A stretch of 64,000 bases of DNA. Origin: a phage. The notes below the pieces were generated by a model. That model ran no database searches, was not told the DNA's origin, and saw only the letters and a program-made list of their open reading frames with translations. Shown piece after piece: positions 3,108 to 41,692 of this stretch. Every line of letters begins with the position of its first letter. The first letter of the stretch is position 1. The stretch lies in sequence record PZ256263.1, one strand, 5' to 3'. Made by a program: the position numbers and the translations under genes.

Positions 3108-3116
3108 TAATGTATA
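3108..3116 (+). promoter_or_regulatory. TAATGTATA motif (candidate promoter for the phage sigma factor)
   Basis: Exact TAATGTATA; the same motif recurs upstream of several genes. No ORF lies immediately downstream, so function here is uncertain. Confidence 0.3.
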
Positions 3117-15556: not shown

Positions 15557-16750
15557 ATGTTTCCAGTAACATTAGAAGATACTGAAGGTAATGTTTTAAC
15601 GGTCAACCCTCCTTGTTATGGGTTCCTTCAGCTTCGCAACTATAACGGTGGCGTTGATGAAGATGATGACGAAGATGAATACTTCGACCCTAACATGTAT
15701 GAGGCAACTCATGGGTGGAATATGCACGTTCGAGTGTGGCATGAAGAAGCTAACGTTCGTAGTGCTGATGGGGAAGAGTTCCTGTTGAGCCGAGAGATGG
15801 ATATGTGTAAAATCAAGCATATCTGGAACTCCGGAACTCACATGAAGATGTTAGGTTTTAGACGTTGGCGTGATGAAAAACCTGTATCCGCAGCTTTAGG
15901 TTGGGGTGCTATTGATTACGAAGGCGAGCTTAAAAACAACATTGAACGTTGGAATGACAAAAACCCTGAACATCGAACCACACCTCGTGCTGTACTGGAA
16001 GCTATGGAAGCATTTGTGGACAAAGATCGTCCCTCCTGTTTACGCTGGCACGATAAAGGTTTTATGGGGGTAGCAACTGAAAATGTTCCTGCTGATCGTT
16101 GTCTATTCTATTTGATGTTAGATCGAACCTTCTATTGTGAAGATGAAGAGAGTCAAGTTGAAACCTTCCTCCACAAATGGTTGGTTGAAGGCTGGACAAT
16201 CCTTCAGTCTTATGTTTACTCACGAATGGTTAGCACTTACACTAACCTCTTGGGTGAAACGAAAGCAACTCTGGTTGGTAATGATTGGGATGCTTGTATC
16301 TTCCCAGCGTCACTATTTACAGTCGGCATGGCTGATAAATACGCTGAAGCATTTCAAGTGCCTTGGCGTCAACAGTCGTATAGAGACGGGTGTGGTCACT
16401 TCCGTGATGAAGACTTTAAGTGGATTCATTATGAGAACGATGAAACAGCAGAATTGCGAGTTAACAACTCAATGTTCTTGCCAGTGATGCACCCCGATCT
16501 AGTAAAAGATGGGTCAGAGATACTTAAAGGTGATAATCTTTTGGTTAACTTTACCCGTCGCGTGTCTAAAAATGAGAGAACAGCTAACAGGCTAATCTAC
16601 GGCATTCGTGCCGAGGCTAAAGACCTGTTCAACATCTACAACATTATTCAGCGATTTAGTAGTGGAACTCTGGACCAAAGTTCGGAGTATTCAGTGATTC
16701 CATCCTCTGAGTGGGATGGTATTATGAGCGGATTATTTTTAGGAAAATAA
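15557..16750 (+). CDS. Hypothetical protein (397 aa), first gene of the amidoligase module
   Basis: Acidic DEDDDEDE run and conserved Cys/His/Trp; no family recognised by eye; contiguous with downstream module genes. Confidence 0.55.
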   Translation: MFPVTLEDTEGNVLTVNPPCYGFLQLRNYNGGVDEDDDEDEYFDPNMYEATHGWNMHVRVWHEEANVRSADGEEFLLSREMDMCKIKHIWNSGTHMKMLGFRRWRDEKPVSAALGWGAIDYEGELKNNIERWNDKNPEHRTTPRAVLEAMEAFVDKDRPSCLRWHDKGFMGVATENVPADRCLFYLMLDRTFYCEDEESQVETFLHKWLVEGWTILQSYVYSRMVSTYTNLLGETKATLVGNDWDACIFPASLFTVGMADKYAEAFQVPWRQQSYRDGCGHFRDEDFKWIHYENDETAELRVNNSMFLPVMHPDLVKDGSEILKGDNLLVNFTRRVSKNERTANRLIYGIRAEAKDLFNIYNIIQRFSSGTLDQSSEYSVIPSSEWDGIMSGLFLGK

Positions 16751-33758: not shown

Positions 33759-33930
33759 ATGTGAAGGAACAAACCTTCATTTAAGTAATAAGGTTATCAG
33801 AGAGCTTGCCAAAGGCTCTCCAACCAAAGGGAAGAACAAACGATTTACTAACGTCAGGGTTTATACAGCAATCTGTAAAGACTGCTTAACTACTGAGTGT
33901 CATTACGAAGAAATTGGAGAGCGTAAATGA
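33745..33930 (+). CDS. Small zinc-ribbon protein (61 aa)
   Basis: CSKCEG ... CKDCLTTEC. Confidence 0.45.
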   Translation: MKCSKCEGTNLHLSNKVIRELAKGSPTKGKNKRFTNVRVYTAICKDCLTTECHYEEIGERK

Positions 33931-34664
33931 GTCGTCGTCAATCACGGAAAGAATCACGGAAAGACCTTCGTCGGGAAGCACTTGTCACTCGTAAGGGTAA
34001 GCGAGAGTTTGAAGAGGTGGTTTTAGCAAAGCCTGTAGTCCCTCAGAACCAGTTTCAGTCTGAGCTACTCAATGCTATTAAGACTAAACAAGTTGTGTTC
34101 ACAGACGCTCCTGCGGGCTGTGGTAAGACCTTTGTAATCACTTCCACAGTTATTGATGCACTGAAGAGTGGTAAGATTCAGAAGATCATTCTGAGTCGTC
34201 CTTCAGTTGGTATGGGCAATTCTCTTGGGTTGCTTCCGGGAGGGATGCGTGAGAAGTTTGAACCTTACCTGATGCCTATCATTGATGTTATTACTCAGCG
34301 ATATGGTAAGGGGTTCTATGAATGCCAGCTCGGTAACAGTAACATTGAGTTCGTACCTCTGGAATATCTCCGTGGTCGTTCTTTCAATGATGCTATTGTT
34401 ATTGTTGATGAGTTCCAGAACACAACTAAAGATGAAGCCTTCTCAATCATGACTCGATTGGGAGAAACCTCTCAGCTGTTCTGCATGGGTGATACTAACC
34501 AGCATGATATGCGTGGTCGTGAGAGTGGTCTTACTTGGGCTACTAACTTTATTGATGAACATGATCTGTATGAGTTCGCTGAGATTGTAGACGGAGAATC
34601 AGATGACATTGTTCGTTCTGGTTTTTGTAAGGCGATTGTTAAAGCAATGGAAAAGAAAGCTTAA
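33927..34664 (+). CDS. phoH: PhoH-like P-loop ATPase (245 aa)
   Basis: Walker A DAPAGCGKTF, Walker B IVIVDEFQN and overall PhoH-like layout. Confidence 0.75.
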   Translation: MSRRQSRKESRKDLRREALVTRKGKREFEEVVLAKPVVPQNQFQSELLNAIKTKQVVFTDAPAGCGKTFVITSTVIDALKSGKIQKIILSRPSVGMGNSLGLLPGGMREKFEPYLMPIIDVITQRYGKGFYECQLGNSNIEFVPLEYLRGRSFNDAIVIVDEFQNTTKDEAFSIMTRLGETSQLFCMGDTNQHDMRGRESGLTWATNFIDEHDLYEFAEIVDGESDDIVRSGFCKAIVKAMEKKA

Positions 34665-34675
34665 ATAGTAACTTA

Positions 34676-34698
34676 TAATGTATACTCCTTAATGTACA
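34676..34698 (+). promoter_or_regulatory. Tandem TAATGTATA / TAATGTACA motifs (candidate phage-sigma promoters)
   Basis: Exact consensus at 34676-34684 and a near copy at 34690-34698, 37 nt upstream of an AAGGAG RBS and the ATG at 34721. Confidence 0.4.
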
Positions 34699-34720
34699 CT
34701 GATATATTAAGGAGTTTTAA

Positions 34721-35035
34721 ATGGCAGACCATGTAGGAAAGAGAGATTATGCACAAGAAAGACGTACCGCAATTGCCCGTGGTGAGACAGGCGTTGGGAG
34801 CAAGAGCGGAGATGCTCAGCGCCACCGTGCACGTCGCATCGTTGAAAAGCGCGATGGAAAAGCTGCTGTCAGAGGTAAAGATGTTGGACACAAACGAGCT
34901 GTCAAGTCTGGAGGCTCTAATGCGTCAAGCAACTTACGTGTTGAATCAGTCAGCTCAAACCGTTCAAACGGCGGCAAAAGTGGTGATCGAGCTGGAAAAG
35001 CAGCTGGAGCACGCAAAGGAGCTTTAAGCTCATAA
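34721..35035 (+). CDS. Highly basic Gly/Ser/Arg/Lys-rich protein (104 aa), likely abundant
   Basis: Consensus AAGGAG RBS at ideal spacing; third-position A/T bias matches other genes, unlike the G-rich third positions of overlapping ORF 34749-35027. Confidence 0.5.
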   Translation: MADHVGKRDYAQERRTAIARGETGVGSKSGDAQRHRARRIVEKRDGKAAVRGKDVGHKRAVKSGGSNASSNLRVESVSSNRSNGGKSGDRAGKAAGARKGALSS

Positions 35036-35045
35036 AGAGGTTATA

Positions 35046-35339
35046 GTGTCAGCAGAAACAAAAAGATGTACAATTCACACTTATTGTAAATTCTGTAAAG
35101 CAGAGGGTGTAAAAAGAGTTGCAACTTTAATGACCAAGTATTCTCCAAGTAGAGGATACAGGGACCACTATAAGCACTACTCTTGTAGTGATCACTCCCA
35201 TCTATTAGAAGATACAGACCCGAATAGAACAAGGAGAGAGCATAACATCGATCTGAGAGCTACTCTCAAGGAAATGAAAAATAACTCTCGGAACAACCAT
35301 TACACTGAAGCTGACTATCAAACTTGGCTTCGTCTCTAG
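35046..35339 (+). CDS. Hypothetical Cys/His-rich protein (97 aa)
   Basis: GTG start after AAAGAGG; CxxC ... C.DH.H. Confidence 0.45.
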   Translation: MSAETKRCTIHTYCKFCKAEGVKRVATLMTKYSPSRGYRDHYKHYSCSDHSHLLEDTDPNRTRREHNIDLRATLKEMKNNSRNNHYTEADYQTWLRL

Positions 35340-35344
35340 AACAA

Positions 35345-35379
35345 AGGCTGCCTAATCAGGTGGCCTTTTCTTTTTTATA
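35345..35379 (+). terminator. Rho-independent terminator
   Basis: AGGCTGCC-taatca-GGTGGCCT stem (two G-U pairs) followed by TTTTCTTTTTTAT. Confidence 0.55.
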
Positions 35380-35408
35380 AACCAAATTAAACTTCTTAGG
35401 TAATAAAT

Positions 35409-35663
35409 ATGTCTATTGTAAAAATCGTAAATATCATTGATGTAACTCGTACCGGTAAGACTATCAGTTGGAAATTCACCAATAAGCATAGAGGTTCAGA
35501 GAACATCATTCGTTATATGATTCAACAAAACCCAAATACAGCTCGCACTAACGTACTCCTTCGAGGAGCTGATGGAAAATTTATTTCTTATAAGAATAAG
35601 AACGTAGAAAAATCTTTCCGTGTTGCAGTAGAAAACCTCATCCCATTCCCTAAAGGAGTTTAA
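35409..35663 (+). CDS. Small paralogous protein, family C member 1 (84 aa)
   Basis: Shares TARTNVLLRGADGKFISYK ... ENLIPFPKG with 35665-35949. Confidence 0.5.
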   Translation: MSIVKIVNIIDVTRTGKTISWKFTNKHRGSENIIRYMIQQNPNTARTNVLLRGADGKFISYKNKNVEKSFRVAVENLIPFPKGV

Positions 35664-35664
35664 T

Positions 35665-35949
35665 ATGAATAAGTTAGCTATGGTTCAGATTCGAGACACA
35701 TACCCTAATCGCCCAGAACAGAAACCACGTACTTGGTCTTACCTACTAGCTGAGAGTAAGACTATTGACAACTTCTCTGTAGGGATTGATACTATCCCGA
35801 CCAGTATCACTTTGCTTCCTCACAAAACAGCCAGAACTCATGTGATGTTACGAGACAGCAAAGGTAAATTTATCTCTTATCGTGATTCACGAATCAATAA
35901 TGAGATTAAATCTGCTATGGAATTTTTGATGCCATTCCCAAGAGGTTGA
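35665..35949 (+). CDS. Small paralogous protein, family C member 2 (94 aa)
   Basis: TARTHVMLRDSKGKFISYR ... EFLMPFPRG. Confidence 0.5.
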   Translation: MNKLAMVQIRDTYPNRPEQKPRTWSYLLAESKTIDNFSVGIDTIPTSITLLPHKTARTHVMLRDSKGKFISYRDSRINNEIKSAMEFLMPFPRG

Positions 35950-35952
35950 GCG

Positions 35953-36111
35953 ATGAAAGAATACATTTATGTAGGACAGCGCTGGTTCGGTGATGAATGG
36001 GAAGGTGGATATAGCGTTGTGAAAGCTTTTAAGTCTGAGGAAGATGCCAAGGCATGGGTCTTAAAAGATGACGTTGGCGAGAGAACTTATATTGAAGTCG
36101 AGGTAGAGTAG
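35953..36111 (+). CDS. Small acidic protein (52 aa)
   Basis: ATG 3 nt after the upstream stop; below the ORF-track cutoff. Confidence 0.35.
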   Translation: MKEYIYVGQRWFGDEWEGGYSVVKAFKSEEDAKAWVLKDDVGERTYIEVEVE

Positions 36112-36551: not shown

Positions 36552-38396
36552 GTGAGCAACCCGGACGCTCTCCCATTTTTGACAGAGATGACTGTCGCTG
36601 ATATAATCTCTAAGCAAGCAAAGCACGGAGTGAGTTTCAACCGAAGAAATGCTCGGTGGTATGTTCACCTCCTTAAAGAGATTATTGTTAATATTGACAA
36701 AGAACTGATTCCTCTCTTACCTAAGATGAGATTAGATGGCTCAACTTATATGAAGCCGTTTAAGAAGTCTGGAGCTTTACAGAAGTGGCCTCAAGCCTAT
36801 TGCGATAGAGTTGGCCTCAAGAGAGAAGACATTGGTGGAGCATTCACCTGTGTCGAGTACGTAGACTTTGACCCATCGAAAGATGCACGAGTTAAAGAAG
36901 CCCTTATGGATGAGGGTTTTCTTCCTCCAGAGTTTAACGTATCTAAAAAGCCTTGGAACACTTTCGAAATTAAGAAAGACATGCGAAAGTATGGAACATA
37001 CCAAGCATGGTACACCGCTTGGATGCGAGGCAATGCTAAACAGAAACAGACAGCCGAGATGGTTGACGCTGATATTAAGAAGTTCTTAGAGAAACACTTT
37101 AGGTTCAAGACTAAGAACTACATGAAGGCTTATGTGTTTGGTTTGGGATTAAACCCTAACCGACGTAACCCTGTAACATTTGACGAGATTAAGAAAGCAC
37201 TAGCTACCTCAAACAAGTGGCCTACAGCTCCTACAAACCTCGAGGAGACTCTTGAAGAAGGGTTAGGGGGTGAGCTAGGGAGTGTCGGAAGTTTGCTTAA
37301 GAGACGTGTTGTAGCGGCTCACAGGCTAGGTCTTATTAGTGGACTTATAGCAAAGGAGCGCGAAGATGGTAAACTTTCGGCAGAAGCTAACAGCTGCGCT
37401 ACGCCGACTTTTCGATTCAAACATCGTATCGTGGTTAATATTCCCTCCCGTGGTTTGTTTGGTCATGAGTGTCGCAGTTTGTTTGAGTCTGACTATAACT
37501 CAGATGATGATCACTCTCGTCCTTTCGTTATTACTAACGTTGTTCCTGATGGTTGTTATATACGAAAAGGTACTAACGTAATTTATGAAAAAGGTAAGCC
37601 GGGGAAGAAAGATAAGCCTGTAGGTGCTTACAAATATTACATACCCGCTGGTAAAGAAGTATTCTTAGGGTATGATGGTTCTGGATTAGAGTTGCGTATG
37701 CTTGCACACTACCTCATTAAAGAGTGTAGAGATATGCTTGCTGAAGCAATAGAAGAAAACAATCCAGCTAAGAAAGCTCTGGCAGAACGTGGTTTAGCTT
37801 CTGCTATTATGTATCGTGATATTCTCCTTGAAGGTGATATCCACTCTCACAACCAGAAACTTGCTGGTCTTCCTACTCGTGACAACGCTAAGACATTTAT
37901 CTACGCATTCAACTATGGTGCTGGTGATGCTAAGCTCGGTTCAATTGTAGGTGGTGGGGCTGACGAAGGTTCAGTGATGCGAGCACGTTTCTTGGCAGAG
38001 AACCCGTGTATTGCAATCCTCATTGATCGTATGACAGAGAAAGCTGCTCAAGGATACTTGATTGGTGTTGATGGTCGTAAGATTACAATGAGACGGGATG
38101 CCACTGGTAAGGTTATGGTTCATAAAGCACTTAACACCCTCCTGCAATGTGCTGGTGCTGTTGTTATGAAATATGCTATGATGTTCCTTAACAAGTGGAT
38201 TGAGAGAGATGGGGTTCGTTGTGCTAAGGTAATTGATATGCACGATGAGGGCCAGTTCTCAGTGAACCGTAATGATGTACAGAAACTCAAAGAACACACC
38301 GAGCTTTGTGTTAAGAAGGCTGGTGAGTATTTGAACATGGAATGTCCTCTGGCATCTGATTGTCAGATTGGACTTAACTGGATGCATACACACTAA
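36552..38396 (+). CDS. Family-A DNA polymerase, polymerase-domain subunit (614 aa)
   Basis: Motif A LGYDGSGLELRMLAHY, motif B RDNAKTFIYAFNYGAGDAKLG, motif C VIDMHDEGQF; no exonuclease motifs in this ORF. Confidence 0.85.
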   Translation: MSNPDALPFLTEMTVADIISKQAKHGVSFNRRNARWYVHLLKEIIVNIDKELIPLLPKMRLDGSTYMKPFKKSGALQKWPQAYCDRVGLKREDIGGAFTCVEYVDFDPSKDARVKEALMDEGFLPPEFNVSKKPWNTFEIKKDMRKYGTYQAWYTAWMRGNAKQKQTAEMVDADIKKFLEKHFRFKTKNYMKAYVFGLGLNPNRRNPVTFDEIKKALATSNKWPTAPTNLEETLEEGLGGELGSVGSLLKRRVVAAHRLGLISGLIAKEREDGKLSAEANSCATPTFRFKHRIVVNIPSRGLFGHECRSLFESDYNSDDDHSRPFVITNVVPDGCYIRKGTNVIYEKGKPGKKDKPVGAYKYYIPAGKEVFLGYDGSGLELRMLAHYLIKECRDMLAEAIEENNPAKKALAERGLASAIMYRDILLEGDIHSHNQKLAGLPTRDNAKTFIYAFNYGAGDAKLGSIVGGGADEGSVMRARFLAENPCIAILIDRMTEKAAQGYLIGVDGRKITMRRDATGKVMVHKALNTLLQCAGAVVMKYAMMFLNKWIERDGVRCAKVIDMHDEGQFSVNRNDVQKLKEHTELCVKKAGEYLNMECPLASDCQIGLNWMHTH

Positions 38397-41223: not shown

Positions 41224-41692
41224 AGAACCTGTAGTTTATAAAGACTCTATCAGAGATCAATATAATGAGATGTTAAAGAAACAAGCTGATTCTAATCTTC
41301 GTTATCAGAGGATAGTAGAACAATCTAACTTTAAAGGTTTACTTGAATGGTAACTTATATCCTTTACTTCTTAGCTTTCTTAGGAATAGTCTTTTTATCT
41401 ATTATTCTTGAATTTGGTTTAAGTAAGTTAGTTAATTATTTAGGTAGTAAGTAATTAATATTCTTTTAAATAGAGAATCAAAGTCCCTAGGAGTCCCCAC
41501 AACCTAAATCAAGGATTCCTTAATTCTCTATTTTTATCTCGCAGGTGGCTCCTGCCCTTCGGTACTTGCAAGGGATTCTATGAATTGCCCAATGTACAAG
41601 CCTGCAAGAGTTATTCTCTAACTCTACCTTATATACATTACCGTTAGTGAGTATCTACTACCAATAAAATGATACTTATCTTACAAAAGTTA

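Follow-up and report, generated by a model that had tools for sequence, protein, structure and literature searches.

The P58–gene 58 unit of a phiEco32-like phage encodes a small, very basic, HNH-like protein

Which of two overlapping open-reading frames (ORFs) at positions 34676-35035 of a 64,000-nucleotide stretch of phage DNA (sequence record PZ256263.1, referred to throughout as the window) is a gene, and what might its product do? An earlier examination, made from the letters alone (the sequence-only reading), had noticed two adjacent promoter-like motifs in front of a highly basic 104-aa protein, with a second ORF covering the same DNA, had likened the protein to a protamine, and had suggested comparing the conservation of both frames in related phages. 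The 2.7 kb around this locus shares 92-96% identity with the Kuravirus (phiEco32-like) E. coli phages SkaterBoy_Bas90, SU10, MN03 and phiEco32; by sequence comparison we identify the window as a Kuravirus (phiEco32/SU10-like) E. coli phage and the locus as the P58–gene 58 middle transcription unit of a phiEco32-like phage. The phiEco32 locus has already been sequenced, annotated as hypothetical and promoter-mapped. We lean towards reading its product as a basic, DNA-binding HNH nicking nuclease of the replication module, translated from the P58 unit.

The 104-aa frame is the coding frame

The 104-aa ORF (34721-35035, plus strand) begins 6 nt behind a consensus Shine-Dalgarno sequence (AAGGAG, 34709-34714, plus strand), which is kept in relatives; both lie where the sequence-only reading had placed them. 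The suggested comparison of the two frames separates them clearly. Translated searches (tblastn) with the 104-aa protein matched 254 phage records, and among the matches listed most relatives shared 50-70% identity over residues 8-83, and most of those outside E. coli phages 60-70%, the hosts and groups including LUZ24-like Pseudomonas phages and phages of Aeromonas, Vibrio, Photobacterium, Salmonella, Cronobacter and Proteus, whereas the same search with the overlapping 92-aa protein recovered 99 close relatives only, none of them outside the Kuravirus-like clade. In phages whose main frame retains 88-94% identity, that of the 92-aa frame drops to 66-73%. Across nine pairwise comparisons of Kuravirus-like phages, the ratio of non-synonymous to synonymous substitution rates (dN/dS) in the main frame was 0.10-0.32 (0.10-0.20 where substitutions suffice), against 1.4-2.8 for the +1 frame in the comparisons with enough substitutions. 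LUZ24-like phages gave the same picture, with main-frame values of 0.03-0.16, at saturated synonymous sites, and +1-frame values of 1.7-6.7. The codon bias that had already favoured the basic-protein frame holds (GC content at the first, second and third codon positions is 0.63/0.58/0.32), and a codon model trained on the long ORFs of the window scores the 104-aa ORF like a real gene; for the 92-aa ORF the best-scoring interpretation is a real gene read out of frame. The CDS56 product of phage SU10, identical in sequence to the window protein, was detected by mass spectrometry at 10.8 kDa (two peptides, 18% coverage; PMC4281155 Table 2), and on this published evidence the 104-aa product is made in SU10-infected cultures (PMC4281155). 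The 104-aa frame is a real gene, under purifying selection.

The second ORF (34749-35027, plus strand, 92 aa in the +1 frame) is present as described, with a ribosome-binding-like sequence that proved weak; no conserved Shine-Dalgarno for it was found in the sequences of related loci, and its ATG is forced by conserved main-frame Asp-Tyr-Ala codons (GAT TAT GCA). A stop in the +1 frame requires a main-frame codon with T at position 2, for which 13 of the 104 codons qualify. When synonymous codons were resampled at genome usage, 9% of trials kept the +1 frame free of stops over 90 codons or more; permuting the gene's own codons gave 23%. Over 40 family loci, 13 had no +1 stop in the conserved core, where 11 are expected from the gene's own codon usage and 2.2 from genome usage, so the openness is not unusual given the codon usage of the gene; 11 of the 40 are interrupted by 2-7 stops. 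On the other side, the +1 frame stays open over almost the whole gene in Kuravirus-like and most LUZ24-like phages, and carries fewer stops than genome-wide codon usage predicts (P 0.02-0.12 per locus). The synonymous rate (dS) of gene 58 is also roughly half that of the neighbouring PhoH-like gene in some divergent comparisons (0.46-0.76 vs. 0.84-1.33; loci L007, L008, L041, L043 and L044), yet exceeds it in L042 and L045, a contrast that likely reflects recombination mosaicism and may include some extra constraint. With +1-frame dN/dS above 1 in two clades, main-frame synonymous sites saturated in one of them, no relatives past close kin and a codon model that disfavours it, we judge the 92-aa ORF to be no gene and a by-product of composition; the evidence is strongly against the dual coding that the sequence-only reading had left standing.

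The annotation of phage LUZ24 itself takes the +1 frame: gp26 (AM910650.1, locus L046 4014-4283, record positions 15668-15937) is described as a "hypothetical protein, contains transmembrane domain", and the conserved frame at this place reads ...RNYKRERELAIRRGETGVGSKSGDAQRHRARR...VVDH... LUZ24 gp26 is probably annotated in the wrong frame, because +1-frame dN/dS is 1.7-6.7 in the LUZ24-like clade.

Gene 58 belongs to a family with an HNH-like core

The gene 58 homologue is, as had been noticed, extremely basic (pI 11.46, net charge ca. +15) and 69 of its 104 residues are G, A, R, S or K; it contains no cysteine. The description as a low-complexity protein survives for the C-terminal ~20 residues, to which low complexity is confined, but not for residues ~30-88, which are predicted to be folded and hold many invariant positions (block-mean predicted local distance difference test, pLDDT, of 86-90 for residues 31-80). 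The protein matches phrog_4590 (E = 7e-41), a family labelled "unknown function". Clustering at 90% identity gives 200 clusters for the family and clustering at 50% gives 345, almost all with lengths of 85-115 aa. In alignments, a conserved N-terminal helical module (R8, Y10, E13, R20-G-E-T within RGETG, and R34-H-R-A-R-R) is followed by the pattern (D)H57-x6-GG-x-N-x3-N71-L-x7-N80 and a Lys/Arg/Gly-rich tail. Among 149 family sequences His57 is present in 149, Asn80 in 147 and Asn71 in 144. We recognise in this pattern the signature of the HNH (beta-beta-alpha-metal) superfamily in its "H-N-N" form, with His57 as the putative catalytic residue closing the first strand, Asn71 as the structural Asn and Asn80 as the putative metal-binding residue of the helix.

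Structure prediction and profile comparisons point the same way. Two AlphaFold models, built from 40 sequences (pLDDT 71) and from 149 sequences (pLDDT 81, predicted template modelling score 0.61), give the same order of elements: helix 10-20, helix 30-45, strand 53-57, strand 72-76, helix 77-86 and a C-terminal helix. The putative HNH core (residues 53-86, positions 34877-34978, plus strand) consists of a strand at 53-57 ending in His57, Gly64-Gly65, Asn71, the strand at 72-76 and the helix at 77-86 bearing Asn80, and this predicted beta-beta-alpha unit resembles solved HNH structures, the fold by which the superfamily is recognised. The top matches among the predicted viral structures of BFVD are "HNHc domain" proteins of 73-100 aa, and the best structural matches include the small phage HNH nickases of GVE2 (5h0o) and Gme (4h9d). 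At the level of sequence, sub-threshold Pfam HNH matches occur in 30 of 40 family members (best E = 5e-4) and HNH_3 matches in 14 of 40, and the distant relatives P0215 and P0221 exceed the Pfam HNH cut-offs; since the cut-off is reached through these relatives, the HNH link is transitive. In a profile alignment (E = 0.22) the catalytic His of the family and the strand that holds it also fall on the HNH domains of Cas9 and of Cas8-HNH fusions, and in some source databases homologues already bear the name "HNH endonuclease" or "McrA". Searches of the window protein against NCBIfam and PADLOC gave no match. Taken together, we are confident that the gene call and the relationship to the HNH superfamily are right.

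The family is a vertically inherited core gene of the phiEco32, 7-11 and LUZ24 podophages, and the 7-11 homologue (SaPh711_gp068) is among the 41 genes common to phiEco32 and 7-11. Much of the wider family has a conserved extreme N-terminus, MPSSPNY(K/V)RDY, in place of which the E. coli clade has MADHVGK or MTDKAK. Unusual architectures were also seen: P0253 (414 aa) carries six tandem HNH_3-like repeats, and in P0140 the N-terminal part of the family is joined to the C-terminal end of a nucleoside transporter. No Pfam domains, and hence no functional hint, came from the large proteins P0207, P0241, P0244 and P0250. Labels vary between records, the same gene being called "Cas8 protein" in Ptacy1532/Ptacy1479 and "PhoH-like" in XT18 (PQ863255.1, PQ863256.1 and OR757434.1; hits H98, H174 and H42); a weak HNH similarity to Cas8-HNH fusions is the probable origin of the "Cas8" label.

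The P58 promoter and the surrounding gene block

In phiEco32, the promoters that depend on the phage sigma factor gp36 are used by the host RNA polymerase when it carries gp36; they have no -35 element and consist of a single element, tAATGTAtA with the core AATGTA, centred at -11.5 (PMC8948821, PMC4331800, PMC12276001). According to these reports, such elements stand upstream of phiEco32 genes 6, 13, 26, 40, 58 and 68 in agreement with experimentally detected promoters, and transcription was mapped experimentally to start 6-8 nt downstream of the element in a gp36-holoenzyme-dependent manner. For SU10, three middle and three late promoters of the gp36 type have been described (PMC4281155). 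The first motif of the window, TAATGTATA (34676-34684, plus strand), matches the gp36 element exactly, at the position given for the P58 middle promoter in those phiEco32 data. Of 13 related loci, 10, that of phiEco32 (L006) among them, carry it at position -46 relative to the ATG; the remaining three (L042, L044 and L045), which lack it at the usual place, have other genes inserted directly upstream. Exact copies of TAATGTATA number five in the window where 0.78 are expected, a count that none of 100 shuffles reached. The other four copies, at 3108 (+), 41632 (-), 41693 (+) and 51525 (-), presumably mark further gp36 promoters, and the pair at 41632 and 41693 is divergent, 61 nt apart.

The second motif, TAATGTACA (34690-34698, plus strand), fares differently, and of the tandem promoter arrangement that had been described only the first member holds up. 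With one mismatch allowed, TAATGTATA occurs 20 times in the window against 19.2 expected, which is chance level, so a second copy of this kind has no statistical weight alone. In each of the 10 relatives with the promoter this place is occupied by TAGTGTACA, and the 56-nt promoter stretch of the window found no 100% match among 50,697 phage records, the best agreeing at 55 of 56 bases; the tandem layout is therefore a private G->A change at position 34692 in a conserved 5'-untranslated sequence, which restores an AATGTA core 14 nt downstream of the first element. A start 6-8 nt downstream of TAATGTACA would leave just 2-5 nt before the Shine-Dalgarno sequence, so the motif is unlikely to matter and is probably not a productive promoter. 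Transcription would start near 34691, ca. 7 nt downstream of TAATGTATA. Directly downstream of this putative start, the 5' leader of relatives contains an 8-bp palindrome, GTGTACAC (window 34688-34700), which the private change shortens to TGTACA in the window.

Gene 58 sits in a rightward early/middle (replication) gene block between a PhoH-like gene upstream (33927-34664; Pfam PhoH, E = 4e-56) and a family-A DNA polymerase gene downstream (36552-38396). In over 30 related loci the DNA polymerase gene likewise follows the homologue of the 104-aa ORF, usually 1-2.5 kb further on. In related records the ORF is a "hypothetical protein", noted in that of WFI101126 as similar to phi32_58. Downstream and co-transcribed with gene 58 is an accessory 97-aa ORF (35046-35339, plus strand; phrog_9585, "function unknown") rich in Cys and His (C8, C14, C17 ... 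C47, H50, H52), followed by an intrinsic terminator found by a terminator scan (35343-35378, plus strand; an 11-bp stem, the stem part at 35343-35368, then a T-run). WFI101126 has an annotated terminator at the corresponding site, and the one at 35343 closes the P58 unit after this one more small gene. Zinc-ribbon proteins often adjoin phage HNH genes (Xu & Gupta). The 97-aa ORF is missing in seven of nine related loci tested, and its occurrence elsewhere is sporadic: ca. 23 Kuravirus records, N4-like Pectobacterium phages, an E. coli siphophage where it lies beside PolI, and Vi1-like Klebsiella myophages. It is not a core partner of gene 58, and the pairing lacks conservation here.

The junctions flanking gene 58 (ca. 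34665-34720 and 35036-35400; L002, L041, L044 and L045) are hot spots for insertion: Bas86 has a homing-type HNH endonuclease gene upstream of gene 58, Bas89 has one downstream of it, and WFI101126 and ES17 have additional small ORFs on the upstream side. Within 34000-36000 an Rfam scan returned chance-level matches only, and Pfam scans of the neighbour genes in L012 and L039 were uninformative.

A subfamily of 88-aa relatives, with the motif MPSSPNYKRDYKQE...GKDVDHK.PL.KGG.N..SNLR...NRS and without the GETGVGSKSGD insert, occupies varied places: right after PolA, near a PD-(D/E)XK nuclease, among small genes, and in some cases directly before the large terminase and portal genes or within ca. 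3 kb of the large terminase gene (TerL). These recurrent neighbours, enzymes of DNA replication and DNA packaging, would fit a DNA-processing role without saying which.

A candidate nuclease and the alternatives to it

In the mechanism that we propose, E. coli RNA polymerase with gp36 would recognise the single-element promoter TAATGTATA and start ca. 7 nt downstream, and the short leader would supply the consensus Shine-Dalgarno sequence from which the 104-aa frame is translated. The basic surfaces of the protein (its N-terminal module and its C-terminal tail) would bind DNA, and in the course of replication, recombination or genome maturation the HNH site, with the help of a divalent metal, might nick or cut this DNA. 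The nicking step is proposed by analogy, because small phage HNH proteins behave as strand-specific nickases when tested (PMC3592412). Whether the gene 58 product is an active nuclease we regard as finely balanced, tipping slightly towards activity.

Several observations weigh against it. The window protein has no Pfam match at E < 0.1, and against PDB sequences a first profile gave no match and a broader one reached E = 0.22 at best. The window protein also lacks an Asp or His directly before the catalytic His: position 56 is Gly (KDVGH) in all 13 E. coli-phage copies, the window protein included, while the 149 family sequences have Asp there in 114 cases, Gly in 21 and His in 6. The corresponding Asp coordinates the metal in Cas9, I-HmuI and T4 endonuclease VII. 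Catalysis may thus be weakened or lost in the E. coli-phage clade. A simple nuclease would not usually be conserved as strictly as 60-70% identity between distant hosts, and in the literature consulted no nuclease activity, substrate or phenotype is reported for any family member.

One alternative is a protein that has kept the HNH fold as a non-catalytic DNA- or RNA-binding module (architectural, regulatory or adaptor), at least in the Gly56 E. coli clade, a reading that is also the nearest surviving form of the earlier idea of a DNA-binding basic protein. The KDVGH sequence in 13 of 13 Kuravirus-like loci, the pI of 11.5 and the Lys/Arg/Gly-rich tail would all suit it, as would expression from the gene's own strong promoter and Shine-Dalgarno sequence, and very strong cross-host conservation would suit binding to a conserved partner. 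However, His57, Asn71 and Asn80 are invariant even in the Gly56 clade, which is unexpected after a loss of catalysis, and 16 of the 21 Gly56 sequences retain Asp54, two residues earlier on the same strand, which could possibly supply a compensating carboxylate. We consider a purely binding role unlikely, though it is the strongest of the alternatives to a nuclease.

A more specialised enzymatic role would be that of a terminase accessory like HK97 gp74 or the GVE2 HNH protein, helping the large terminase to cut concatemers at genome ends. The structural resemblance to the GVE2 and Gme nickases, the position of some 88-aa relatives before or near terminase genes, and the fact that the related phage PaP3 is a cos packager all speak for this role. 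Against it, the window gene and its counterparts in more than 30 related loci are in the replication block behind a middle promoter, far from the terminase, other 88-aa relatives adjoin PolA, and the [CxxC]2 zinc site that defines the class is absent, the window protein having no cysteine and only 3 of 120 relatives having any. Such a role is rather improbable.

A still poorer prospect is what the sequence-only reading had proposed, a protamine- or histone-like protein of low complexity that would condense DNA or form part of an internal core and be packaged in the virion. The extremely basic composition, rich in Gly, Ser, Arg, Lys and Ala, and the presence of SU10 CDS56 peptides in a concentrated phage preparation are what such a protein would predict. 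The folded, conserved HNH-like core with its invariant catalytic His is not, nor is a gene in the middle/replication block rather than the late structural block; moreover, the SU10 preparation was concentrated with polyethylene glycol and not purified on caesium chloride, it also contained DNA polymerase, PhoH and the sigma factor, and CDS56 is listed there under middle gene products (PMC4281155). The protamine comparison thus falls away as very unlikely. Translation of the 92-aa +1 ORF into a second, functional amphipathic or membrane peptide, against which the frame analysis speaks on nearly every count, is scarcely credible. A homing endonuclease was considered and rejected: gene 58 is syntenic, vertically inherited and highly conserved, without extra DNA-binding modules.

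A long-shot candidate for the nicks of LUZ24/tf-like phages

The virion DNA of tf and related LUZ24-like Pseudomonas phages carries strand-specific nicks at TACTRTGMC, for which a nickase is not named in the reports that describe them (PMC3517423, PMC11780129). The cysteine-free mini-HNH family is a candidate because it is present in all of those tf/LUZ24-like phages; we rate the chance that it makes the TACTRTGMC nicks there as slim. In that event a nicking system, or something derived from one, would await discovery in the phiEco32-like phages. The window itself contains three exact copies of TACTRTGMC and 30 with one mismatch, against 46 expected, and so shows no enrichment. Nor did a convincing motif emerge when the window was searched for strand-asymmetric, over-represented words of 8-10 nt, either exact or allowing one degenerate position. 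Two skewed words were seen along the way: TGTCTAAAGT (5:0 strand ratio) includes an ATG-Ser-Lys gene start (the ORF at 744), and GCANTAGC (19:2 strand ratio) may reflect coding bias on the gene-rich plus strand.

Significance and comparison with known systems

What this analysis offers is a place in the HNH superfamily for a "hypothetical protein" encoded by one of the best-conserved genes of the phiEco32, 7-11 and LUZ24 podophages. The gene 58 protein would be a new, atypical member: zinc-free, very basic and only ~100 aa long. The competing frame can be dismissed, and LUZ24 gp26 is flagged as a wrong-frame annotation. The family also becomes a testable candidate for the LUZ24/tf-like nicks or for a role in replication or genome maturation, and a small, soluble, cysteine-free HNH nicking module would have some value as a tool.

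The closest known systems are phiEco32 gene 58 (phi32_58) and SU10 CDS56, whose proteins are 98-100% identical to that of the window and whose genes likewise have TAATGTATA at -46 and lie behind PhoH and ahead of DNA polymerase; the window alone differs by its private G->A change, with the second AATGTA core 14 nt downstream. The homologues in LUZ24 and in PaP3/tf-like Pseudomonas phages are of the same family (61-63% identity) and likewise lie in the replication gene block, in LUZ24 directly downstream of DNA polymerase part I and ca. 2 kb upstream of part II, but they keep Asp56, and the LUZ24 record annotates the +1 frame as gp26.

Among characterised HNH proteins, the terminase-linked nickases (GVE2 5h0o, Gme 4h9d, N.phiGamma and HK97 gp74) have a [CxxC]2 zinc site and lie beside cos/terminase genes (PMC3592412). 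The gene 58 family, in contrast, has no such cysteines, a different N-terminal module, a basic tail, a place in the replication block and Asn rather than His at the last catalytic position, with identities of 15-16%; because both the zinc site and the adjacency to cos/terminase genes are lacking, we place the gene 58 protein outside the terminase-associated zinc-ribbon HNH class. The HNN-type HNH domains of I-HmuI, Cas9 and the Cas8-HNH fusions show the same (D)H...N...N pattern: Cas8-HNH aligns with the family profile over "gkdvdHkkplkkGGsnsksNl", and I-HmuI over 68 residues at 24% identity. Those domains, however, are parts of large proteins that supply the DNA or RNA targeting, whereas the gene 58 protein is free-standing at ~100 aa, and its E. 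coli-phage clade has dispensed with the Asp or His before the catalytic His.

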